From sequence record NC_054922.1: 64,000 nucleotides of DNA. One strand, 5' to 3'. This DNA is from Escherichia phage vB_EcoM_KAW1E185. Position 1 is the stretch's first letter. Each line of letters opens with the position of its first letter. Shown here one piece after another: positions 3,249 to 43,005 of this stretch. The notes beneath the pieces were generated by a model. It was not told the origin of the DNA. It ran no database searches and saw only the letters and a list, made by a program, of their open reading frames with translations. Both the position numbers and the translations under genes were made by a program.

Positions 3249-3263
3249 TCTTTGACGATTTAA

Positions 3264-3290
3264 GGGACCTTCGGGTCCCTTTAGTTGTTT
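3264..3290 (+). terminator. Rho-independent terminator after gene 23: GGGACC-UUCG-GGUCCC hairpin plus T-run
   Basis: Perfect 6-bp GC stem with UUCG tetraloop at 3264-3279 followed by T-rich tract. Confidence 0.65.
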
Positions 3291-3296
3291 TTATGG

Positions 3297-3304
3297 TATA
3301 AATA
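3297..3304 (+). promoter_or_regulatory. T4-type late promoter TATAAATA for gene 24
   Basis: Exact TATAAATA 28 nt upstream of the gene 24 ATG. Confidence 0.6.
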
Positions 3305-3331
3305 AATCATATAAACCAAAAGGAAAGCGCA

Positions 3332-5658: not shown

Positions 5659-5937
5659 TCAAAATGTAATTTCTAACCAATCACCATCACGCTGATCACT
5701 ATTAACTTTAAAGCTGAATCCTTCTTTTCTCAGCCAATCACCAATTTCTTCAGTAATCAATTTATCACGAGCAATACAATAATAATTAAAATGTGTTTTA
5801 CCCTGTTCAGCTGCTTTATTAGCAAGTTCCGAAAAATCTTTAATAAAACACTCTAGCTTAAACTGTTTACTTTTGAATGCTTTTTCGCGTAATTGATTAG
5901 CAAAAGATTCATTTTCATAAAGATCATACTGTTCCAT
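5659..5937 (-). CDS. Hypothetical protein, T4 24.2-like
   Basis: 92-aa ORF in conserved position between rnlB and hoc. Confidence 0.55.
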   Translation of the reverse strand: MEQYDLYENESFANQLREKAFKSKQFKLECFIKDFSELANKAAEQGKTHFNYYCIARDKLITEEIGDWLRKEGFSFKVNSDQRDGDWLEITF

Positions 5938-6139
5938 TTTTCACCTTTTTATTGATATGTCTTTTTCTATAGACAACTTTTTCTCGAGTTTCAAATTTAT
6001 TCTTAGCAGTCATAGCTCGAGCCCATAATACAGCCACTTCTTTTGCCTGTAAGTTTAATTCACGAGCAATTTCAATGAATGACTTTCCAGACTCATGAAG
6101 AGTAAACACCACAACCTCAGTTCTCATAATCAATCTCAT
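5924..6139 (-). CDS. Hypothetical protein, T4 24.3-like
   Basis: 71-aa ORF overlapping the downstream ORF start; conserved position. Confidence 0.5.
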   Translation of the reverse strand: MRLIMRTEVVVFTLHESGKSFIEIARELNLQAKEVAVLWARAMTAKNKFETREKVVYRKRHINKKVKNGTV

Positions 6140-6206
6140 GTTATCGAGTTGGTGCCATTATATACATCATTTTCTGATTGTGTTTTGTGTGCTTTCAAAA
6201 TGAAGA

Positions 6207-6224
6207 AAGGGGCCGAAGCCCCTT
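6207..6224 (-). terminator. C(UUCG)G hairpin downstream of hoc on minus strand
   Basis: Minus-strand AGGGGC-UUCG-GCCCCU stem-loop followed by T-rich tract. Confidence 0.5.
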
Positions 6225-6228
6225 ATGA

Positions 6229-7359
6229 TTATGGATAGGTATAGATGATACCAGTTTCTAAAGCAGTTTTATGAATGATGTATCCATTACGCGATTCTTG
6301 GACATCAACTTCTGGATAGTCTTTCATCATCTTCTGAAGAGTGTAACGATGCAGGTAGTATTTACTATCTGGATCTTCAGTTTTCCAATCTTTACCTTCT
6401 TCAGTCATTTTTTGGATTTCATCCATAACCCACCAACCGCACCAGATGTAAGCTGAGCTACGGTGTGGAAGAGGATGAACATAAGGTAATTCACCTTCTG
6501 GTTCTGGAGCAACTTTATCAGTTACCTGAACTTGACCTTCCGCCGTAATAGTTTTGCTATCATAATCAGCAGCAGTAACAGTTGCAGTAACTTCAATAGT
6601 TTGACTTCCAATAGATGAGGTATCAACTGTATATACATTAGTTGATCCTTCTACAGGAGAAGAATCTTTCTTCCATGAATACGCAATTTGCGCTTCTTCT
6701 GGAGCATCAGTGACATTAGCAGTAAATGTAGCCGAAGCATCTTGTTGAACGTTAATAGAAGGAGGAGTCAATGTAACCTGTGGATTCATTGTCTTCTTAT
6801 TAACTGTTAATGATACTTCATTCGAAGTAACTTCCTTTTCATTGTAATTTTCAGCAGTTACTTGAGCTACGCATTTAATTCTTTTTACTCCACTTGTAGT
6901 TGGAGTATAGTTAAATGTAGAGTTAGTTTCTCCACCAACTTGTGAATCATCTACATACCACTGATACGTAGCAGATGCTCCATCAGGTTGAGAAGCTAAG
7001 GCAGCGGTAAATTCAACAGCTGTTCCAATCACTCCAGCAGCAGGACTATCAGGAGTTACTGCCAAGGTAGTTGTCTGTGTCTTATTTTGAACTGTGATAG
7101 TTGTTGTCGCTTCAGCCGTTTCCGGGCCTCCTTCAGAAAGTGTATTTGTTGCAACTACTTTAATAGTCTTTTGACCGGCAGGTCCTTTTAGTACATAACT
7201 AAAAGTTGCTTCAGCTCCATCTTGTGGAGCATCATCTACAGTCCAAGCATAGGTAATAGTTCCGCCTCCAGTTTCACCACTGGGTGTAGCAGTAAACTGC
7301 TGAGTCTGATCTATAACTCCAGTAGGTGTTTTAGGAGTTATATCAACTGTAAAAGCCAT
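6229..7359 (-). CDS. hoc: Highly immunogenic outer capsid protein Hoc (Ig-like domains)
   Basis: 376-aa Thr/Val-rich ORF with repeated Ig-like segments; T4 Hoc length and position. Confidence 0.85.
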   Translation of the reverse strand: MAFTVDITPKTPTGVIDQTQQFTATPSGETGGGTITYAWTVDDAPQDGAEATFSYVLKGPAGQKTIKVVATNTLSEGGPETAEATTTITVQNKTQTTTLAVTPDSPAAGVIGTAVEFTAALASQPDGASATYQWYVDDSQVGGETNSTFNYTPTTSGVKRIKCVAQVTAENYNEKEVTSNEVSLTVNKKTMNPQVTLTPPSINVQQDASATFTANVTDAPEEAQIAYSWKKDSSPVEGSTNVYTVDTSSIGSQTIEVTATVTAADYDSKTITAEGQVQVTDKVAPEPEGELPYVHPLPHRSSAYIWCGWWVMDEIQKMTEEGKDWKTEDPDSKYYLHRYTLQKMMKDYPEVDVQESRNGYIIHKTALETGIIYTYP

Positions 7360-7368
7360 AAGTTATCC

Positions 7369-8049
7369 TTATTTTAATGTTACGAAAGAAGAATTGCGTG
7401 TTTCACGAATTAGAACTGATCCGTCGCGATTAATGTAATAAATTAAGCTAAATAAAGTTTGGTGTGCCGACGCATGTTCAAAACTAGTTGGGTGAGATTT
7501 CCAATCCGGAGTTTCAGCAATCCACTGATAAATCCACCAAGGAACAGTACAGAATCCTGGATTTTTTCCAATCAGCTGAAGATTCGGACTAAAGTTTTCC
7601 GGAAGAGTAAATACAGACGGCTTTTCAGATTCAATAATCTCAGCTACAGCTTGCTCGAATTTTTCTTCAACAAAAGGAGTATCTTCAATCAAAACATCGG
7701 TATTTTCGGGAATTTTATCCGTTTCGACTACTTCAATTTTAATGTCAGATTTAACCGGAGAATCAATCAGAAGTGCTGCCTCTGGATTGACTTCTTCATC
7801 GTCATATTTTAATCCGTCTGCGGCATCAGCAGCATCAATTAAGTCTTTAATAGATAACCCATCAGTCTCTGGCATAGGTTCACTAGCGAGCTTCTGGAGG
7901 GCTTCTTCAATATCATTAACGATATTATCAAAAGATTTATTCTTTTTGACCTTTATACCAAACTGTTCAGCATATTCAGCTAATTTAGCTTTAGCTTCTT
8001 TATTATCATCAAGAGCCTTCAGCTCTGCAATATAATCTTTATCTATCAT
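7369..8049 (-). CDS. inh: Inhibitor of prohead protease gp21 (Inh)
   Basis: 226-aa ORF downstream of hoc; T4 position. Confidence 0.7.
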   Translation of the reverse strand: MIDKDYIAELKALDDNKEAKAKLAEYAEQFGIKVKKNKSFDNIVNDIEEALQKLASEPMPETDGLSIKDLIDAADAADGLKYDDEEVNPEAALLIDSPVKSDIKIEVVETDKIPENTDVLIEDTPFVEEKFEQAVAEIIESEKPSVFTLPENFSPNLQLIGKNPGFCTVPWWIYQWIAETPDWKSHPTSFEHASAHQTLFSLIYYINRDGSVLIRETRNSSFVTLK

Positions 8050-8062
8050 AATATTTCCTCAG

Positions 8063-8070
8063 TATAAATA
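8063..8070 (+). promoter_or_regulatory. T4-type late promoter TATAAATA upstream of uvsW
   Basis: Exact TATAAATA 30 nt upstream of the uvsW ATG; uvsW is late-transcribed in T4. Confidence 0.55.
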
Positions 8071-8099
8071 TAGATATATTTATTACATGGTATTTAGAC

Positions 8100-9611
8100 A
8101 TGACTGACATTAAAGTACATTTTTATGATTTTAGTCACGTGAGAATTGATTGTGAAGAAAGTACATTTCATGAACTCCGTGATTTCTTTAGCTTTGAAGC
8201 TGATGGGTATCGTTTTAATCCGAAGTACAAATATGGCCACTGGGATGGACGAATCCGTCTTTTAGATTATAATCGTCTTCTTCCATTCGGCTTAGTCGGG
8301 CAAATTAAAAAGTTCTGTGATAACTTTGGCTATAAAGCCTGGATTGACCCACAAATTAACGAAAAAGAAGAATTATCAAGAAAAGATTTTGATGAATGGC
8401 TTTCTAAATTAGAAATCTATTCAGGAAATAAAAGAATTGAACCACACTGGTATCAAAAAGATGCAGTGTTCGAAGGATTAGTTAATCGTCGTAGAATTCT
8501 TAATCTTCCAACATCTGCAGGTAAATCTTTAATTCAAGCTTTGCTTGCGCGATATTATTTGGAAAATTATGAAGGTAAAATTCTTATCATTGTTCCAACA
8601 ACTGCTCTGACAACTCAGATGGCTGATGACTTCGTCGACTATCGTTTATTCAGTCATGCAATGATAAAGAAAATTGGCGGCGGAGCATCAAAAGATGATA
8701 AATATAAAAATGATGCACCAGTCGTTGTTGGTACATGGCAAACTGTAGTTAAACAACCGAAAGAATGGTTCTCACAGTTTGGAATGATGATGAATGATGA
8801 ATGTCATCTTGCTACAGGAAAAAGTATTTCATCTATCATATCAGGTTTAAATAACTGCATGTTCAAATTCGGTTTGTCTGGTTCATTACGTGATGGCAAA
8901 GCCAATATCATGCAGTATGTTGGAATGTTTGGTGAAATATTTAAGCCAGTAACGACTTCTAAATTAATGGAAGATGGACAAGTAACTGAGCTAAAAATTA
9001 ATAGTATTTTTCTTCGCTATCCCGATGAGTTCACTACTAAATTAAAGGGAAAAACTTATCAAGAAGAAATAAAAATTATTACTGGGCTTAGTAAAAGAAA
9101 TAAATGGATTGCTAAATTAGCTATTAAGCTTGCGCAAAAAGATGAAAACACTTTTGTCATGTTTAAACATGTATCACATGGTAAAGCTATTTTCGATTTA
9201 ATTAAAAATGAATACGATAAAGTTTATTACGTATCAGGGGAAGTTGATACCGAAACACGCAACGTAATGAAAACCTTAGCTGAAAACGGTAAAGGAATAA
9301 TTATAGTAGCTAGTTATGGTGTATTTTCTACTGGTATTTCAGTTAAAAATCTGCATCACGTTGTTTTAGCGCACGGTGTTAAATCAAAAATCATTGTATT
9401 ACAAACAATAGGTCGCGTATTACGTAAGCATGGTTCTAAAACAATCGCAACGGTCTGGGACCTCATTGATGATTGTGGTGTTAAGCCAAAATCTGCTAAT
9501 ACGAAAAAGAAATACGTTCATTTGAACTATCTTTTAAAACATGGCATTGATCGTATTCAGCGCTACGCAGATGAAAAATTTAATTACGTAATGAAAACAG
9601 TTAATTTATAA
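8100..9611 (+). CDS. uvsW: UvsW RNA-DNA / DNA-DNA helicase
   Basis: 503-aa ORF with Walker A-like PTSAGKS and DECH helicase motifs; recognised as T4 UvsW. Confidence 0.92.
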   Translation: MTDIKVHFYDFSHVRIDCEESTFHELRDFFSFEADGYRFNPKYKYGHWDGRIRLLDYNRLLPFGLVGQIKKFCDNFGYKAWIDPQINEKEELSRKDFDEWLSKLEIYSGNKRIEPHWYQKDAVFEGLVNRRRILNLPTSAGKSLIQALLARYYLENYEGKILIIVPTTALTTQMADDFVDYRLFSHAMIKKIGGGASKDDKYKNDAPVVVGTWQTVVKQPKEWFSQFGMMMNDECHLATGKSISSIISGLNNCMFKFGLSGSLRDGKANIMQYVGMFGEIFKPVTTSKLMEDGQVTELKINSIFLRYPDEFTTKLKGKTYQEEIKIITGLSKRNKWIAKLAIKLAQKDENTFVMFKHVSHGKAIFDLIKNEYDKVYYVSGEVDTETRNVMKTLAENGKGIIIVASYGVFSTGISVKNLHHVVLAHGVKSKIIVLQTIGRVLRKHGSKTIATVWDLIDDCGVKPKSANTKKKYVHLNYLLKHGIDRIQRYADEKFNYVMKTVNL

Positions 9612-28095: not shown

Positions 28096-28328
28096 AGTAC
28101 GCCATACACCCTTTGTGCTTCAACTAATCCATCAAAATCCAGTTTAAGATGTGTTATTTGGTCACCATCACCTGGATTCACAATTACTAATACTGAACGA
28201 GGAGTTTCGGTAATAACACGAACCGATGTTTCTGGAAATCGTACAGAAACTTTATTTACCAATTCCTGAGCAAATAGTTTAACTTTTTCTTGGAATTCTT
28301 TAACAGTAATTGGTTTTTCACTTAGCAT
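28092..28328 (-). CDS. Hypothetical protein, T4 cd.2-like
   Basis: 78-aa ORF. Confidence 0.45.
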   Translation of the reverse strand: MLSEKPITVKEFQEKVKLFAQELVNKVSVRFPETSVRVITETPRSVLVIVNPGDGDQITHLKLDFDGLVEAQRVYGVL

Positions 28329-28849
28329 GTTGATCCCAGCTCCTTACTTTCAACGTTTTTAACTAATTTGACAGAAACTAATTCGGCATCTTGGGTAATC
28401 ATTACCGGGCCTTCTTCATACTCTTCAAGATATTCTAGAGCTTTCTTTTTAGCTTCTTCCTTCGTATCAGTTTGAGCATAGATATAAAACATACAACCAG
28501 TAATACCTACTACTTTCCACTTAATTTCTTTATCAGTTTTAATTTCAAATTTACTGATAGAGTCATCTTTTTGAACTTCTTCGAAAAAATAATATTCTGA
28601 CATATAAGTAATTGAAAATAGCGGGCTATCTTTATAAGATTCGCCCATTACATCAACAGCTTTATACCAGCAATCGTCAATTTCGCGTTTAATGCTAATA
28701 ACATTTTTCGCAGGATCTATTTTTACTTTAAATGAATTTTCCCCAATAAACTGAGAAATTCGTTTATTAGCCCCGCAAGTTTCATTAAAAATATCTTTAT
28801 ATCCAGCTTTAAAGTGATAAACCTTATCTTCTTCAAACCATTTGCTCAT
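28322..28849 (-). CDS. Hypothetical protein, T4 cd.3-like
   Basis: 175-aa ORF preceded by an early promoter. Confidence 0.45.
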   Translation of the reverse strand: MSKWFEEDKVYHFKAGYKDIFNETCGANKRISQFIGENSFKVKIDPAKNVISIKREIDDCWYKAVDVMGESYKDSPLFSITYMSEYYFFEEVQKDDSISKFEIKTDKEIKWKVVGITGCMFYIYAQTDTKEEAKKKALEYLEEYEEGPVMITQDAELVSVKLVKNVESKELGSTC

Positions 28850-29390: not shown

Positions 29391-30805
<1,415 letters not shown>

Positions 30806-32237: not shown

Positions 32238-33825
<1,588 letters not shown>

Positions 33826-33832
33826 AATAAAA

Positions 33833-33848
33833 TGGGCCTTGCGGCCCA
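33833..33848 (-). terminator. Hairpin (GNRA loop) plus U-run between nrdB stop and denA start
   Basis: Minus-strand UGGGCC-GCAA-GGCCCA followed by UUUUAUU immediately 5' of the denA ATG. Confidence 0.45.
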
Positions 33849-33852
33849 CTCC

Positions 33853-35022
33853 TTAAAAATATTTTTTAAAACTCATCATAACTTTATCATCAACGTCATT
33901 ATCAATCTGTGCTACAAGATAAGATGACAGTTCTACTTCTTGCGGTGCAGATTGAACATTATCAGAATTAAGATATTCACGAATCCAAGGATACGGATGT
34001 TTAACCGGAGCATCAGTAATTGGGCATGGAAGACCACACTGTTTCATACGAGATACAGTTAAGTAATCAATAAAGCTCCACATGCTATTTGTATTTAATC
34101 CAGGAACATCGCCATCTTTAAATAAATGAACTGCCCAGTCTTTTTCTTGACGGTTAACTTCCATGAAAATATCAACTGCTTCTTGTTCACACTCTTGAGC
34201 AATTTTAACCCATTCATCACCATCAGTGCCAAGTTGAAGTTGACGAATAATATATTGGGTGCCTTTAAGGTGAAGCTGCTCATCACGTGCAATGAACTTC
34301 ATAATCTTGGCATTACCTTCCATGATTTCCATGTTCTTATGGAAGTTAAAGGTACATGCGAAAGATACATAAAAACGAATAGCTTCCAATGCGTTGATTA
34401 CGTGCAGGCAGAGGTAAAGAGATTTCATTAGTGCTCGTTTAGTACATTCAACAACTTTGCCTAGCTCTTCTTTACGAAATCCTTCTGATAAAATTCCTTC
34501 ATAATCTTCAACCGCATTCTGATATTCACGAGTCTTAACTAGAACGTCATCATAATAACGACCAATAGATTCAGCACGTTTCATGATAGCTTTATCTAAT
34601 ACAATCTCATCAAATACCTTTGATGGATCAGTATAAAGATTTCGCATGATATGAGTATATGAACGACTGTGAATAGTTTCGCTAAAAGTCCATGTAGCAA
34701 CCCATGTATCAAGACTTGGGTCTGAAATTAACGACATAAGTACAGCAGACGGCGCACGACCCTGAATGCTATCCAAAAGTGATTGATACTTCAGGTTATT
34801 AGTAAAAATATCTTGCTGATATTGAGGAAGCTTGTTAAATTGTGCAGCATCCATCATCAAGTTTACTTCTTCAGGACGCCAGAAAAATGATAAAGATTTC
34901 TCAATAAGTTCTTCAAATACTCTATGCCGTTGAATATCATATCGAGCTAAACCCAATCCAGAACCAAAAAACATCGGCTCAGTCAAAATATTAACAGGGG
35001 ATGTATTAAAAACTGTACTCAT
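33853..35022 (-). CDS. nrdB: Ribonucleotide reductase small subunit NrdB (uninterrupted)
   Basis: 389-aa continuous ORF recognised as T4 NrdB; no intron interrupts the frame. Confidence 0.93.
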   Translation of the reverse strand: MSTVFNTSPVNILTEPMFFGSGLGLARYDIQRHRVFEELIEKSLSFFWRPEEVNLMMDAAQFNKLPQYQQDIFTNNLKYQSLLDSIQGRAPSAVLMSLISDPSLDTWVATWTFSETIHSRSYTHIMRNLYTDPSKVFDEIVLDKAIMKRAESIGRYYDDVLVKTREYQNAVEDYEGILSEGFRKEELGKVVECTKRALMKSLYLCLHVINALEAIRFYVSFACTFNFHKNMEIMEGNAKIMKFIARDEQLHLKGTQYIIRQLQLGTDGDEWVKIAQECEQEAVDIFMEVNRQEKDWAVHLFKDGDVPGLNTNSMWSFIDYLTVSRMKQCGLPCPITDAPVKHPYPWIREYLNSDNVQSAPQEVELSSYLVAQIDNDVDDKVMMSFKKYF

Positions 35023-35660
35023 TTAGAATCCTTAAATTTACATTTATCATAATGCCATCTTAGAGCATTGCCTTTATTAACCTTCTTGCCACAATGCGGA
35101 CAAGGCGGATACTCTATACTTTGCTTAGTTCTCAAAGAAATCAAATCACGAGTTTCTTTAGTATGAGGAACATCTCTTGTTGGAGAGATTGTACCATACA
35201 TCGGATTAAGCACGCCGACTTTAGCAGCAGCTATATTCTTTTTAGCTTCTTCGGTTTTAGGTTTTCTCATGCGAGCTAAATGCTCTTTGGTAAATTTCCT
35301 TCCTTTAAGAGCTCTACTTATCTTTTCCCTGGTTTCTATAGAAACTTCACGTCCTATAGCAGCTTCAGATAAACGTCGTCTACCTAATTCGTATAGTTGA
35401 GAAGAAATTTTATATGAGCGATTTTTACCAGTCAAGCACATTAAACCAAAAGCTTTCTTTAATCCTGGGGTGTCATATATTTTGCATAAAAGCCAATGAG
35501 CTATAAAATGCTCTCTACCTGTTAATTCAACTAAATTTTCTTTATCATCAGAACCTCCCATACATCTAGGGATTATATGATGAGTCTCTTTATATTCAGA
35601 TAAAGGTTCCCGAGCCTGAGCTCGGGAAATTAGGTCATTATAGATTTTTTGATAATTCAT
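35019..35660 (-). CDS. mobE: HNH homing endonuclease (MobE-like)
   Basis: 213-aa ORF with HNH motif (HHIIPRCMGGSDDKENLVELTGREHFIAHW) and C-terminal CPHC zinc-finger-like element; inserted between nrdA and nrdB with ATGA couplings. Confidence 0.7.
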   Translation of the reverse strand: MNYQKIYNDLISRAQAREPLSEYKETHHIIPRCMGGSDDKENLVELTGREHFIAHWLLCKIYDTPGLKKAFGLMCLTGKNRSYKISSQLYELGRRRLSEAAIGREVSIETREKISRALKGRKFTKEHLARMRKPKTEEAKKNIAAAKVGVLNPMYGTISPTRDVPHTKETRDLISLRTKQSIEYPPCPHCGKKVNKGNALRWHYDKCKFKDSK

Positions 35661-37924
35661 TACAATTTACACGCTGCACAATCTTCAGCTTTTGGAGTTT
35701 CTATTTCATAATCATCAGTACCAGAACCATCGCGGGTATTATGATAATAGAAATTTTTTCCGCCAAAATACCAAAAATACAAAAGGTCATCAATCATTAT
35801 TGACATTGGAACCTTGCCTTTAGGGAAGATTTGGGGGTCATAGTATGTATTCGCCGAAGCTGATTGACAAACCCATTTCAGCATAATAGCTACCTGCGTA
35901 AGATAAGGTTTATTACCTTTCTTAGCTAATTTCCATGTATAGTCGTAAAGGTCTATGTTATGCTCAATATTGGGCACGACCTGATTAAAGGAGCCCTCTT
36001 TTGATTCTTTAACAGAGACTGGTCCACGTGGAGGCTCGATACCGTTTGTACTGTTAGAAACTTGGGAAGATGACTCACATGGCATAAGTGCTGATAATGT
36101 GCTATTACGGATGCCAAAGAGCTTAAGGTCTTCCCGCAGCGACGACCAGTCACAAACGTATTTTGGAGCTGCGATTTGGTCAATCTTTTTATTGTACCAG
36201 TCGATAGGTAATTCGCCTCGAGACCAACGAGTGTCTGAATAATATTCGCAAGGTCCTTTTTCTTTGGCGAGCTTAATGGATGCTTTAATGAGTCCATACT
36301 GCAATCTCTCAAATAGTTCATGTGTTAAATCGTTAGCATCTTCATAAGAAGCAAAATTACTTGCCAGCCAAGCTGCATAGTTAGTAACACCTACGCCGAG
36401 GTTTCGACGCTTTTTAGCTTTTTCTGCTTCAGGAACTGGATATCCTTGGTAGTCCAAAAGATTATCAAGAGCACGAACTTGAACTTCTGCCAATTCATTA
36501 ATTTTATCTTGGTCTTGCCAATCAAAGTTATCTAACACAAATGCAGATAACGTACACAATCCAATTTCAGCATCAGGACTATTCACGTCATTTGTTGGAA
36601 TAGCAATTTCACAACACAAGTTGCTCTGACGAATAGGTGCCTTTTCACGAATAAATGGAGTATAGTTATTCGTATTATCAATGAACTGTACATAAATCCT
36701 TGCTGTTCCTGAGCGTTCAGTCATTAGCAATTCAAACAGCTCACGGGCTTTAATACGCTTTTTACGAATATTAGGGTCTTTTTCTGCGGCTTCATATAAT
36801 TCACGGAAACGGTCTTGGTCTTTAAAATAAGAATAATAAAGCTCACCACCCATTTCATGTGGACTGAACAAAGTAATGTAATCGTTCTTTCCGAATCGTT
36901 CCATCATCAAATCATTCAGCTGAACACCATAATCCATATGACGAATTCGGTTTTCTTCTACGCCTTTGTTATTTTTCAAAACGAGAAGATTTTCAACTTC
37001 CAAATGCCAAATAGGATAATAAGCAGTAGCAGCGCCGCCACGAATTCCACCCTGTGAGCATGATTTAACAGCAGTCTGAAAATGTTTCCAAAAAGGAATA
37101 ACACCAGTATGACGTACTTCACCTGTACCAATCTTAGAACCTTCGGCACGAATCATACCAACGTTAATACCAATTCCAGCGCGTTTGGAGATATATTCAA
37201 CAATTGAAGCGGAAGCCTTATTGATAGACTTCAGCGAATCACCTGCCTCAATAACAACACATGAACTAAACTGTCGAGTCGGAGTACGACAACCAGCCAT
37301 AATAGGAGTTGGCAGTGAAATCTGTCGAGTAGATACTGCTTCATAAAAACGGATAACATGTTTTAATCTATCAACAGGTTCATCTTGATGCAGTGCCATT
37401 CCAATAGCCATAAATGCAAACTGTGGAGTTTCATAAATTTGACCAGTGGTTTTATCTTTAACTAGATATTTTTCTTTTAATTGCATCGCCCCGGAATAAG
37501 TAAATTCCATATCCCGCTCGTGCTTAATTTTTGATTCTAAAAATGTAATTTCTTCCGCAGAATATTTTGACAATAATTCAGGGTCATATTTACCTGCATT
37601 TACGCAATAAGAAATATGGTCAATAAATGAACGCGGTTCATACTGCCCGTAAACATGCTTACGAAGAGCAAACATTAAACAGCGTGCAGCTACATATTGA
37701 TAATCAGGCTCTTCAACCGAAATAGAATTCGCAGCAGCCTTAATGACAATAGTCTGAATATCATCAGTTGTCATTCCATCACGGAGATAAGATTTAATAT
37801 TTTCATATAATTCATAAGGATCTACTGATGTTCCCTCAGCTGCCCAAGATAAAACTTTAATAATTTTTTGTGGATCAAAGCTCTGAGAAACACCACTACT
37901 TTTGATAACATTAATTAATTGCAT
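35660..37924 (-). CDS. nrdA: Ribonucleotide reductase large subunit NrdA
   Basis: 754-aa ORF recognised as T4 NrdA. Confidence 0.95.
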   Translation of the reverse strand: MQLINVIKSSGVSQSFDPQKIIKVLSWAAEGTSVDPYELYENIKSYLRDGMTTDDIQTIVIKAAANSISVEEPDYQYVAARCLMFALRKHVYGQYEPRSFIDHISYCVNAGKYDPELLSKYSAEEITFLESKIKHERDMEFTYSGAMQLKEKYLVKDKTTGQIYETPQFAFMAIGMALHQDEPVDRLKHVIRFYEAVSTRQISLPTPIMAGCRTPTRQFSSCVVIEAGDSLKSINKASASIVEYISKRAGIGINVGMIRAEGSKIGTGEVRHTGVIPFWKHFQTAVKSCSQGGIRGGAATAYYPIWHLEVENLLVLKNNKGVEENRIRHMDYGVQLNDLMMERFGKNDYITLFSPHEMGGELYYSYFKDQDRFRELYEAAEKDPNIRKKRIKARELFELLMTERSGTARIYVQFIDNTNNYTPFIREKAPIRQSNLCCEIAIPTNDVNSPDAEIGLCTLSAFVLDNFDWQDQDKINELAEVQVRALDNLLDYQGYPVPEAEKAKKRRNLGVGVTNYAAWLASNFASYEDANDLTHELFERLQYGLIKASIKLAKEKGPCEYYSDTRWSRGELPIDWYNKKIDQIAAPKYVCDWSSLREDLKLFGIRNSTLSALMPCESSSQVSNSTNGIEPPRGPVSVKESKEGSFNQVVPNIEHNIDLYDYTWKLAKKGNKPYLTQVAIMLKWVCQSASANTYYDPQIFPKGKVPMSIMIDDLLYFWYFGGKNFYYHNTRDGSGTDDYEIETPKAEDCAACKL

Positions 37925-38241
37925 AAGTCCTCAACTTGAAAATCGTCTTTAAACAATCGGTTAACTATATGAGCTATTATATCACCATGACACGGCTTTG
38001 GTTTACATGTGCATCCTAGCCTCATTCCACGTAAAGGCTCTAAATGTGCTTTAGTTATTTCTCCGGATTTAATTCGACGTATAAAATCTTTTTTGAATAA
38101 TTCAATGGCAGCCTCCCGGCTGCCAGCATCTTTACCGACGTAATTTCCCCAAAATGTACCGCGGTGAATATTAACATCAAAGTCGGATTTGTATTTATTC
38201 ACTACCCGGCATAGACGGCCCACGCTGGAATAATTCGTCAT
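37915..38241 (-). CDS. Hypothetical protein, T4 nrdA.1-like
   Basis: 108-aa Cys/His-containing ORF. Confidence 0.5.
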
Positions 38242-38458
38242 ATTGTTTTTCCGTTAAAACAGTAATATCGTAGTAACAGTCAGAAGAAGTTTTAACTGTG
38301 GAAATTTTATTATCAAAATACTCACGAGTCATTTTATGAGTATAGTATTTTTTACCATAAATGGTAATAGGCTGTTCTGGTCCTGGAACTTCTAACTCGC
38401 TTGGGTTAGGAAGTGTAAAAAGAACAACGCCAGAAGTATCTTTAAATCGTAAAATCAT
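38195..38458 (-). CDS. Hypothetical protein, T4 nrdA.2-like
   Basis: 87-aa ORF. Confidence 0.45.
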
Positions 38459-39315
38459 ATTGCCATTTTCCCTTTAATTGCTGGATGCGATTCATAATTT
38501 TCAAGGATAAAATCTTTCGGTTTCATGTATTCAGTTAACCAGTAAAGCTGTGTTTCGGTGTCACAATTTCCAAACTCTATAGGCCAATCAATTTTAAGTT
38601 CACATAGTTCTTTAGGCTCACGACGTAAAATTTCTTTACATTGCTCAGTATGATTCATATAGATGTGAGTATTACCACCAGAAAATATCAAATCTCCTGG
38701 GATAAGATTACACATCTTAGCCACAATATGCGTCAAGGCAGCGTACGAGGCAATGTTGAATGGCAAGCCCAAGAAAACATCTACACTTCTTTGGTACCAT
38801 TGTAAATCAAGATAACCATTACGCACATTAAACTGATAGAACATATGACAGGGCGGTAATGCCATTTGATTGATTTCAGCTGGATTCCATGCTGAAACGA
38901 TTTGACGTCGATCAGTTGGTAATTTTTTAATACGATCAATAGTTTCAACTAATTGATCCACACCACCGAAATCACGCCATTGTTTACCGTATATAGGACC
39001 AAGTTCACCACTATGATATCCTAGGTCTTTAGCCTGGTTTTCATAGTTATCGTCCCAAATAGTTTTACCTTGAATAAGACTACCATGAGTGCGAAGACGT
39101 AAATCATTAACATTGGTAGAACCGGAAATAAACCATAGAAGCTCAGCAATGCATGCATTCCAGGCGAGCTTCTTAGTCGTTACTGCAGGAAAACCTTTAG
39201 TTAAATCCCAGCGTAATTTAGTACCGAACAAAGCAATTGTTCCTGTGCCTGTTCGGTCATCGGTTTCATAACCATTTTCAAAAATGTCTTTAATTAAATC
39301 TTGGTATTGTTTCAT
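38455..39315 (-). CDS. td: Thymidylate synthase (uninterrupted)
   Basis: 286-aa continuous ORF with catalytic PPCH motif; recognised as T4 Td; no intron. Confidence 0.95.
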
Positions 39316-39359
39316 TTAGTACCTTATATAAATTATAATACATTTTATGAAGCTAATAA

Positions 39360-39707
39360 TTAATACGGTTTAGCATCAAATTTTCTCTCAATTTCAGGCG
39401 TGAAATATAATTCTTTACCGCGTTTGGAAAAGCGACCAATAATATGATAATTATTCTCATCAAACGTGATATTACCAATATCCATAGCTTTCAACCAAAT
39501 ATCGATATTTCTATCCAGCTTTATGTCAAAATTCCAATACGGAGAACTATTACCGAAAATACTGCAAGCGGATTCAGTGAAACAACTGCTATAAATCTTG
39601 TCTTTAGGAACTACTAATTGATAGACACCTTTAATAAACTGAGGACCCTGCCACTTTGGCTGTTTCGCGTCTTTTTCTAATAGAATAGGGTAATAATTAA
39701 AATTCAT
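39360..39707 (-). CDS. Hypothetical protein between frd and td
   Basis: Track ORF of 119 aa begins with GTG; the internal ATG at 39705-39707 gives 115 aa; no recognisable motifs. Confidence 0.4.
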   Translation of the reverse strand: MNFNYYPILLEKDAKQPKWQGPQFIKGVYQLVVPKDKIYSSCFTESACSIFGNSSPYWNFDIKLDRNIDIWLKAMDIGNITFDENNYHIIGRFSKRGKELYFTPEIERKFDAKPY

Positions 39708-39727
39708 ATTTTCCGCCACGCGTTATT

Positions 39728-40557
<830 letters not shown>

Positions 40558-40568
40558 ATTATCTCCTA

Positions 40569-40901
40569 TTAAAAAGGATCAGGAACATATCCACTAGCTT
40601 TAATCATTTTAACTAATGTTACCATTCCTTTGTTAACTGCTTGTGAGATTTCATCAAAAACTTCATCATTAAAAAGTTCTAGCACACCCTTCTGAACTTT
40701 TAATTTACAGCCAACAATTTCGTCATCGCCTATAGTAAATTCATTACCGCCAATTCCACCGAAAAACTTAATTACCCCAGTTAACTGTCTTCCACGAGAA
40801 TATGGGTCATGTGATAAAGTAATATGAGTCACCCCAGGTACAGTTTTAAATTGACAGCGAATGTTTACTTGAGAAATTCCAGTTACATGAATGTCAGACA
40901 T
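40569..40901 (-). CDS. Hypothetical protein, T4 frd.2-like
   Basis: 110-aa ORF. Confidence 0.5.
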   Translation of the reverse strand: MSDIHVTGISQVNIRCQFKTVPGVTHITLSHDPYSRGRQLTGVIKFFGGIGGNEFTIGDDEIVGCKLKVQKGVLELFNDEVFDEISQAVNKGMVTLVKMIKASGYVPDPF

Positions 40902-40911
40902 AATATTTTCC

Positions 40912-41154
40912 TCAAACAGACTTTTTCACAGTTTTCCAATCAGCTTTAAACTGATCAACATCAGAATGGTAAATCCAGAATCCTGCGCTTTCTCCATCCT
41001 CATAAAGAGGGCATCCATCGCATTCATCTTCCCATCCCATATCACGCAAAAGACGTTCAGCTTTTTCAACGAGTTCAGAATCTTTACCGATGATATTAAA
41101 ATACCATTTACCTCTAACTTCTGAATCTTTGATGCTCTGGCGTTGTAATCTCAT
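40912..41154 (-). CDS. Hypothetical protein, T4 frd.3-like
   Basis: 80-aa ORF with CDGC motif. Confidence 0.5.
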   Translation of the reverse strand: MRLQRQSIKDSEVRGKWYFNIIGKDSELVEKAERLLRDMGWEDECDGCPLYEDGESAGFWIYHSDVDQFKADWKTVKKSV

Positions 41155-41208
41155 TTTATTCTCCTTAGTTGATAGGGTAATAGTATCACACTACTACCCT
41201 TCTGTAAA

Positions 41209-41574
41209 CTACTTTTTGAAAGTTTTTCGCAAAAGTTCAATGATTTCATCTACATTGTTTTCGTCAACAATGCAGTGAATTTTTGTTACGCCATAAACCT
41301 CGTCTTTGACTTCATCTTCTTCAGAAGTCGGTTCTTTATACTCACGAAAACAATGAAATTCATCTTCGCAGACGTTGAAGTAAAAATGCTTTCCATTGGC
41401 GCATTCTACGTGTTTTACTACTTTAAATCCATCAGCAAAGAAAACTTCTTTAACTTCAAACCATCCGCCATTTTCTTGAATAGCTTTAACTATTAATGAA
41501 TTAGAACGCGGGCGATAATTAATAAATGTATCAATAAGTCTTGGAACAAGTTCGTACTTTTTATCAATATACAT
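41209..41574 (-). CDS. Hypothetical protein
   Basis: 121-aa ORF. Confidence 0.45.
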   Translation of the reverse strand: MYIDKKYELVPRLIDTFINYRPRSNSLIVKAIQENGGWFEVKEVFFADGFKVVKHVECANGKHFYFNVCEDEFHCFREYKEPTSEEDEVKDEVYGVTKIHCIVDENNVDEIIELLRKTFKK

Positions 41575-41618
41575 TGTGTTTTCCTCATTTTAATAGGGGC
41601 TTGATAGCCCCTCGATAA

Positions 41619-41870
41619 TTACTGTTCAATCAATCCCATGTAAAATTCTGCATCTTCAGCATCCATACCATCACAGTATTCATTAGCCATAAATCGTTCA
41701 AGAACTTCTAAAGGACCTTCAATAACAATAGAAAAATTGCAATAATTGGGATCATCATGAATACTTGTGATACTAAGTTCAGGATAACGATTACGAATAA
41801 TTTCTTCAATATATTCAAAATCAACGATGTCAATATCAACTTTAGCCATATTGTTTTCCTCTTTAATCAT
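41619..41870 (-). CDS. Hypothetical acidic protein
   Basis: 83-aa ORF immediately downstream of an early promoter. Confidence 0.45.
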
Positions 41871-41890
41871 CAGCAGTATTGCCGATAGTT

Positions 41891-41922
41891 GTATAGTACC
41901 ACAGTATGCTTTGGTTGTAAAC
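41891..41922 (-). promoter_or_regulatory. Sigma70-type early promoter (-35 GTTTAC, -10 TACTATAC) with A/T-rich upstream element
   Basis: Minus strand aaaaatttttttttcacagaacgGTTTAC-aaccaaagcatactgtgg-TACTATAC; near-identical copy at 58475-58506. Confidence 0.5.
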
Positions 41923-41956
41923 CGTTCTGTGAAAAAAAAATTTTTGAAATAAAAAA

Positions 41957-41975
41957 GGGGACCTCTAGGGTCCCC
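41957..41975 (-). terminator. Rho-independent terminator after gene 32
   Basis: Minus-strand GGGGACC...GGUCCCC hairpin followed by UUUUUUAUUU. Confidence 0.6.
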
Positions 41976-41997
41976 AATTAATTAGTAATATAATCTA

Positions 41998-42906
41998 TTA
42001 AAGGTCATTCAAAAGGTCATCCAGGTCCGTGTCATCAGCACTAGATGAACTGCCAGAGCTTGAGCTCATAAAATCATCTTCAGTTTTTGTTTTGAAGTCA
42101 TCAACATTGAATGCATCCAAATCATCAGCAACTTTATCGGCTTTCTTAGCAGCAGTTGCTGCGGCACCACCCATAGCAGCAGTTCCCATAACTTGACTGA
42201 ACTTAGTGCTCAGTTCTTCAAACGATTTGAATTTATCTTTAGAAGTCATTTCAGAAAGGTCAACCATTTGTTCGAACAGTTCTTTCTGGAAAGATTCATC
42301 ATCAATGTTTGGAATCGCAGATTGATTCAGGAATTTAGATTCGTCGTAGTTACTAAATCCAGAAACTTGTTTAACTTTCAGTACAAAGTTAGCACCTTCC
42401 CACGGACAAGTTACATCAACTGGAGTTTCACCCATTTCAACATCAACCGCAATCATTGCATTGATTTTATCCCAGATTTTCTTACCGAAACGGTATTTAA
42501 ATACTTTACCTTCGTTTTCTGGAGCAGCTGGGTCTTTTACTACAAGAATGTTAGCCCAGTAAGAAGTTTTACGTTTAACAAGACTGTACTCTTTATTGTC
42601 AGTGTTGTACAGATCATTTTTACTAATGTATTGACATACTGGGCAAGAATCGTAATCACCGTGGGTAGATGAACAGTTTTCAATATACCATTTACCATTT
42701 TTCTTGAAACCGTGATTTACAAGAATTGCGAATGGTGCTTGTTCATCATTTTTAGACGGAAGAAAACGAATTACTGCTTGACCGTTACCCGCATTGTCGA
42801 GTTTCAGTTTCCACTCGCCTTTATCTTCAGAAGAAAAACCACCTTTATTTCCAGCCAGTTTAGCCATTTGTGCAGCGAGTTCAGCAGTAGATTTACGTTT
42901 AAACAT
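41998..42906 (-). CDS. 32: Single-stranded DNA-binding protein gp32
   Basis: 302-aa ORF recognised as T4 gp32, including the acidic Ser/Asp-rich C-terminal tail. Confidence 0.95.
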
Positions 42907-42989
42907 TTTTATTTCCTTTTTAATTTAATTAACAGTTGGTGCTATGACGATGTATGACCTCATAGCTGGTCAGTGAGATAATTATAATC

Positions 42990-42997
42990 TATTTATA
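42990..42997 (-). promoter_or_regulatory. Late promoter TATAAATA in the gene 32 upstream region
   Basis: Reverse complement gives TATAAATA about 85 nt upstream of the gp32 ATG. Confidence 0.4.
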
Positions 42998-43005
42998 ATA
43001 AGCAA

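Follow-up and report, generated by a model that had tools for sequence, protein, structure and literature searches.

T4 is an outlier among its relatives in being rich in homing endonucleases: most related phages carry few endonuclease insertions, and the intron lying within td, the gene for thymidylate synthase, occurs sporadically among T-even-like phages (PMC2988022). The td locus of Escherichia phage vB_EcoM_KAW1E185 (NC_054922.1), analysed here within a stretch of 64,000 nucleotides that we call the window, raises the question of whether this phage holds an intact td allele without the intron and, if so, whether the intron was never acquired, was lost, or is kept out by a site that I-TevI cuts poorly. 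An initial annotation of the window had described td as a single continuous 286-aa ORF with the catalytic PPCH motif, intron-free like many T4 relatives and a natural recipient for the T4 intron. Taken as a whole, the data are best explained by an ordinary, functional, intron-free td (ThyA) allele of an RB14/teqdroes-type Tequatrovirus, a reading that we hold with high confidence and in which the enzyme activity is predicted from homology.

Identity and integrity of the td gene

Two features define the gene, which lies on the minus strand, a detail missing from the initial annotation:

38455..39315, minus strand: td, thymidylate synthase CDS, 286 aa, uninterrupted (ORF list, Pfam, NCBIfam, 1TIS, T4 alignment)
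38845..38856, minus strand: PPCH catalytic-cysteine motif, residues 154-157 (translation; the 1TIS alignment has the same residues in T4 Td)

According to the ORF list and the translation, td reads from an ATG start to a TGA stop in a single frame, and it shares a 4-base overlap with the nrdA.2 homologue (38195..38458). Its product matches the Pfam model PF00303 (Thymidylat_synt) with an E-value of 7.2e-96 and 320.8 bits against a cut-off of 24.3, residues 2-286 covering positions 1-266 of the 266 in the model, and the NCBIfam model TIGR03284 with 299.8 bits against a cut-off of 108.35. It also aligns with the structure of T4 Td (1TIS) from residues 1-286 on 1-286 (E 1.6e-171), an alignment in which the segment Q175-R176-S177 (the QRS segment with its conserved Arg) is the same in both proteins. 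The sequence marks of ThyA membership, i.e., a full-length model match above the curated cut-offs, the PPCH cysteine and the QRS arginine, are thus all present, and the ORF list, Pfam, NCBIfam and 1TIS agree with the earlier description of one continuous ORF with PPCH. As judged from these matches, the identification of td is one of strong homology and not a chance-type statistical pattern. That the ORF might instead be a pseudogene, a misassembly or another enzyme of the family is hardly credible: no support for this was found, and although the C-terminal 50 residues of Td diverge strongly from T4, the ThyA-model and 1TIS matches are full-length, the catalytic motifs are intact, and the same allele, including its divergent C-terminus, is at least 99% conserved in dozens of viable phages that were isolated independently.

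The td product would convert dUMP to dTMP by means of the catalytic Cys156 in PPCH, its translation would proceed straight from the unspliced mRNA, and the gene would act from within the conserved nucleotide-metabolism cluster frd - td - nrdA.2 - nrdA.1 - nrdA - nrdB. The order observed in the window, 32 - frd.3 - frd.2 - frd.1 - frd - td - nrdA.2 - nrdA.1 - nrdA - nrdB, is the same in RB14 and R5505, and the window is Tequatrovirus DNA.

The T4 insertion site carries no insertion

In the T4 reference used for comparison (NC_000866), the td CDS is annotated as a join of two pieces that enclose the I-TevI gene, so that the window was not being set against an intronless T4 gene. When mapped, T4 td consists of an exon 1 of 549 nt ending TTCTTGGGT, an intron of 1017 nt and an exon 2 of 312 nt starting CTACCGTTT, which bears out what the initial annotation had said of T4, namely a td intron with I-TevI. 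The position in the window that corresponds to the T4 insertion is the following:

38766..38767, minus strand: counterpart of the site at which the T4 td intron is inserted, no insertion (ungapped exon alignment and blastn synteny)

Window td and spliced T4 td, both of 861 nt, align without a gap, with 665/861 nt and 238/286 aa identical. The junction falls between gene nt 549 and 550, i.e., between codons 183 and 184, where the window reads GGC^TTG and T4 reads GGT^CTA (the caret marks the junction, at 38767/38766). The pairwise alignment proposed with the initial annotation therefore returned an exact exon-exon junction within a colinear gene. The same boundary emerges from blastn synteny: in a map in which the window faces T4 positions 103263-168903, T4 143543-144565 is left without a counterpart between window 38763 and 38768. 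A MAFFT alignment of window td with the unspliced T4 gene had placed a 1-kb gap at the 3' end; it was superseded by the explicit exon mapping and the ungapped comparison.

The likeness to T4 td (NC_000866, 1TIS) thus comprises the 286-aa length, 83% aa identity without gaps, the catalytic motifs and the frd-td-nrdA position, whereas the difference lies at codons 183/184, where T4 has a group IA intron of 1017 nt with I-TevI and the window has none. At the DNA level, 77% of positions are identical to T4 td, and the stretch from gene nt 721 to 800 looks non-homologous.

The 3' end of td (38455-38596, gene nt 720-861) is sharply mosaic relative to T4: an identity of about 90% falls to 16/60 nt over nt 721-780, length and frame being kept and the C-terminal ~45-50 residues differing from those of T4. 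The td genes of phages Pu-Krd-SF2 and FL23 keep the same divergent 3' end as the window, and the pattern suggests that td contains an old recombination boundary.

Searches for intron and endonuclease sequences

The initial annotation had also stated that td contains neither a group I intron nor I-TevI. An Rfam scan at the gathering threshold gave zero matches in the window, and zero matches as well in an 11-kb stretch of T4 that holds the td and nrdB introns and served as positive control. Because the control was missed too, this negative result for the window carries no weight; and since both genuine T4 introns (td and nrdB) escaped detection, Rfam scans at gathering level are unusable for calling T4-like phage DNA intron-free. 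When run in E-value mode, the T4 control yielded the td intron core as RF00028 with 40.3 bits (gathering threshold 50) and an E-value of 2.9e-8, and in this mode RF00028 had no match in window positions 33000-43000 (E <= 10) or in the entire window (E <= 0.1). Comparison of the T4 td and nrdB introns with the window by blastn gave just chance matches of 12-32 nt, and tblastn with T4 I-TevI (cut-off E <= 0.01), SegD, SegE and SegG found nothing in the window. Thus, none of the hallmarks of an intron-bearing td allele, i.e., a ~1-kb insertion at codons 183/184, a group I core and an I-TevI gene, was detected in the window, and the searches for group I core elements, intron DNA and I-TevI uphold the statement.

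Other T4 insertions were followed over the same interval. The nrdB gene (33853-35022, minus strand, 389 aa, Pfam Ribonuc_red_sm) is also uninterrupted, the T4 nrdB intron with its defective I-TevIII (T4 138457-139058) being precisely missing between window 34355 and 34358. The GIY-YIG endonuclease genes segD, segE and segG, free-standing in T4, are all absent at the corresponding positions (window 3259-3320, 8086-8106 and 42969-43005). Of the six homing-endonuclease genes that T4 has in this 64-kb interval, one is present in the window, the mobE-like one.

Distribution of intron-free td alleles

When used as a query, window td matched 661 phage records, 449 of which hold td colinear, defined as at least 80% of window td in one uninterrupted place. 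The T4 td intron matched 260 records, with at least 80% of the intron present in 197; shortened td introns (24-45% coverage) occur in some dozens of further records, and intron carriers amount overall to ~200-250. From the 449/661 records with a colinear td and the 197-260 intron matches it therefore follows that td lacks the intron in roughly two thirds of the T4-like phages sequenced. The phrase "like many T4 relatives" is thus well founded, 449/661 records having a one-piece td vs. 197 with at least 80% of the intron.

A td at least 95% identical to that of the window was found in 105 phage records, including RB14 and R5505, and is colinear in all of them among the matches listed. The td genes of vB_EcoM_R5505 (MK373786) and teqsoen share 99.8% DNA identity with window td, and that of RB14 (NC_012638) shares 99.3%; R5505 and RB14 td are, like window td, intron-free and 861 nt long. 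Relative to the window, RB14 and R5505 td show 2-6 point differences, among them an A at position -1 in RB14 where the window has C, and both phages have the neighbours found in the window, including a small ORF that separates frd from td. The intron-free state of td is therefore common and already known, the same allele being present in GenBank in more than 100 phages, and as such it matters little beyond correct annotation.

The I-TevI homing site in the window allele

I-TevI recognizes a site of 38 bp, in which its binding region takes up 20 bp with the insertion site at the centre and cleavage falls 23 and 25 nt upstream; the enzyme has been described as sequence-tolerant (PMC2988022). Within the cleavage motif CAACG, C1 and G5 are critical and many CNNNG variants are not cut (PMC5009752). 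In a scan of all 64 motif triplets, single A/T-rich changes remained near wild-type, and single-substitution scans showed sensitivity at position 2 of the spacer and to C3T at its position 3 (PMC4065259). Moreover, in a Tev-TALE assay, natural phage td substrates comprising motif plus spacer (53-87% identical) were as active as that of T4, with the exception of RB32, whose activity was reduced (PMC4065259). No published data on CAAAG specifically, and no list of the phage td substrates, were found in text or supplements. Comparison with T4 gives the following counterparts in the window:

38754..38793, minus strand: counterpart of the I-TevI homing site (-27..+13) (sequence comparison with T4)
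38789..38793, minus strand: CAAAG, counterpart of the I-TevI motif CAACG (-27..-23), C1 and G5 kept, Gln175-Arg176 (sequence comparison)
Spacer positions 1-4: CTCA in T4, AAGT in the window; 4 differences
Binding region -8..+13: TCTTGGGT^CTACCGTTTAATA in T4, TCTTGGGC^TTGCCATTCAACA in the window; 6 differences (-1, +1, +3, +6, +9, +12)

Overall, 11/40 positions of the homing site differ from T4, one in the motif, four in the spacer and six in the binding region, in which 15/21 positions are identical. The motif change, AAC to AAA, is a single A/T-rich substitution. The two retained critical bases, C1 as the first base of the Gln175 codon and G5 as the second base of the Arg176 codon, are therefore both fixed by the protein sequence; the differences leave the protein unchanged over the 16-residue stretch and are therefore all synonymous. 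The ten substitutions in spacer (4) and binding site (6) could lower the efficiency of I-TevI on the window site.

The intron-free td of RB32 (NC_008515) resembles the window allele in having CAAAG, AAGT at spacer positions 1-4 and the same sequence at +1..+16. In contrast, it has 81% overall identity to window td, three additional spacer changes, and a substrate whose Tev-TALE cleavage was reduced (PMC4065259). The assumption that RB32 td equals the window allele, RB14 and RB32 being similar phages, was ruled out by this 81% identity. Since the two alleles differ, the cleavage result for RB32 transfers to the window only in part, and it advises caution rather than indicating resistance.

Naturally invaded counterparts

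A 1.7-kb query spanning frd-td-nrdA.2 was used to find window-type loci that bear the intron. Pu-Krd-SF2 (PQ249396) matched it with 100% coverage and 96.6% identity, in two pieces over 2718 nt, at a locus annotated with thymidylate synthase twice and a homing endonuclease. Its intron is identical to that of T4 at 1014/1017 positions, its I-TevI protein is identical, and its td exons divide into three segments:

Pu-Krd-SF2 td nt 1-310: window 304/310 (98.1%), T4 256/310
Pu-Krd-SF2 td nt 311-554: window 203/244 (83.2%), T4 228/244 (93.4%)
Pu-Krd-SF2 td nt 555-861: window 306/307 (99.7%), T4 204/307

The T4-like tract thus reaches ~240 nt into exon 1, taking in the cleavage site, and ends at +3 in exon 2. 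The downstream flank is identical to the window at 351/355 positions; the upstream flank contains an indel relative to the window, which makes its ungapped identity meaningless, and it was not used. FL23 shows the same pattern, i.e., window-type distal exons, a T4-type intron and a T4-like tract, the tract being longer.

The likeness of Pu-Krd-SF2 td to the window allele therefore resides in the distal exons, whereas the T4-type intron, the intact I-TevI and the T4-like exon-1 tract set it apart. With this composition, Pu-Krd-SF2 td resembles what the window allele would be expected to become "after homing", although its mosaic could alternatively stem from ordinary recombination and not from I-TevI-initiated homing. 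Together, the window allele (before) and Pu-Krd-SF2 (after) make a clean natural pair with an exon-1-skewed co-conversion tract of ~240 nt, a pair which also shows which variants of the homing site have undergone invasion in nature.

FL23 differs from the window at a further site: within 5893-8717 of its record, nrdA is annotated in two pieces, split by a "homing endonuclease" ORF at 7372-8082, which suggests an insertion inside nrdA that is missing from the window.

Origin of the allele and its fate in mixed infection

The flanks of the insertion site bear on how the window came to be intron-free. Among the alleles examined, the three with the intron (T4, Pu-Krd-SF2 and FL23) have T at -1 and a T4-like tract, CAACG(C/A)TCAG...GGGT^CT. 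The intron-free alleles have C at -1 in the window, R5505 and RB32, and A in RB14, and the tract is divergent in all four. A T at -1 would take part in the U-G wobble with which P1 closes, and folding the T4 5' splice region locally yields this pairing, a result that alone is not significant. Because the window has no T4-like flanking tract and C, not T, at -1, its allele was most likely never invaded. A secondarily intron-free state, produced by precise loss from an intron-bearing ancestor, e.g., through recombination with a spliced cDNA or an intronless allele, would fit a junction that is exact and in frame, and the shortened, ORF-less td introns seen elsewhere (24-45% coverage) show that the element does decay. 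Such a loss is nevertheless very unlikely, given that the intron-bearing alleles share the tract and the T at -1 from which the window, R5505, RB14 and RB32 differ, and given that more than 100 close relatives are intron-free too; in addition, no residual T4-type co-conversion sequence was seen near 38766/38767. In the predicted course of an invasion, I-TevI would be bound around 38754-38775 and cleave at CAAAG (38789-38793), which the window retains; a co-infecting genome that bears the intron would then serve as the repair template, so that the intron enters together with flanking exon sequence.

Whether the site permits this depends on how the substitutions are weighed. The allele might persist without the intron as a poor or resistant I-TevI substrate, owing to CAAAG, the AAGT spacer and the six binding-region changes, and would then be no natural recipient. 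The divergence at 11/40 positions, the uncut CNNNG variants (PMC5009752), the sensitivity of spacer position 2 and of C3T at position 3, and the reduced activity of RB32 td, with the same motif and the same four spacer changes (PMC4065259), all speak for a poor substrate. Against it, the critical C1 and G5 are kept and triplets with a single A/T-rich change stay near wild-type, every other natural phage td substrate was cut as well as that of T4, the three extra spacer changes of RB32 are missing from the window, and Pu-Krd-SF2 and FL23 provide window-type alleles that carry the intron with a co-conversion footprint. On balance we regard such exclusion as improbable, while giving it appreciable weight. 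The window site is probably a usable, perhaps sub-optimal, I-TevI target, and the proposal that window td is a natural recipient of the T4 intron, which draws on motif retention and the natural invaded counterpart, is plausible. A more specific idea is that the allele is partially I-TevI-refractory, its synonymous changes being packed in the spacer and binding region and selected for slowing intron invasion; this we consider doubtful, somewhat more so than the poor-substrate reading itself. If true, it would help to explain why about two thirds of the sequenced T4-like phages stay intron-free despite efficient homing.

Neighbouring elements in the window

A free-standing homing endonuclease gene with HNH and NUMOD3 domains (35019-35660, minus strand, 213 aa) lies between nrdA and nrdB. 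It matches Pfam HNH and NUMOD3 as well as phrog_655 (E 1e-66), and its product joins in one frame an N-terminal part of 125 aa similar to T4 MobE (61%) with a C-terminal part of 83 aa similar to T4 NrdB.1 (97.6%). Because the mobE and nrdB.1 parts of T4 lie in different frames, the T4 pair looks like a frameshifted, split version of the intact gene of the window. A gene of this type is present in slur02/04, FL08 and T6; it is missing from R5505, RB14 and RB32, where the nrdA-nrdB spacing is 52 nt, and in this respect R5505 and RB14 differ from the window.

Upstream of td, a 405-bp insert (window 39319-39725) separates frd from td, two genes that overlap in T4 (ATGA). On either side of the insert stands a copy of a 9-bp direct repeat (39310-39318 and 39726-39734; TAAATGAAA in gene sense) that duplicates the frd-stop/td-start junction, and the insert contains one ORF (39360-39707/39719, 115-119 aa) of phrog_1928, a function-unassigned family, with no match in Pfam or NCBIfam. 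RB32 and RB14 annotate this ORF as "RB32ORF229c, flanked by 9 bp repeat".

Small ORFs also occupy segments without a T4 counterpart at the sites cd.2/cd.3, pseT/pseT.1 and frd/frd.1:

28322-28849, minus strand: small ORF, 175 aa, phrog_3710
30485-30805, minus strand: small ORF, 106 aa, phrog_2364
40312-40557, minus strand: small ORF, 81 aa, phrog_3183
40569-40901, minus strand: small ORF, 110 aa, Pfam DUF7247
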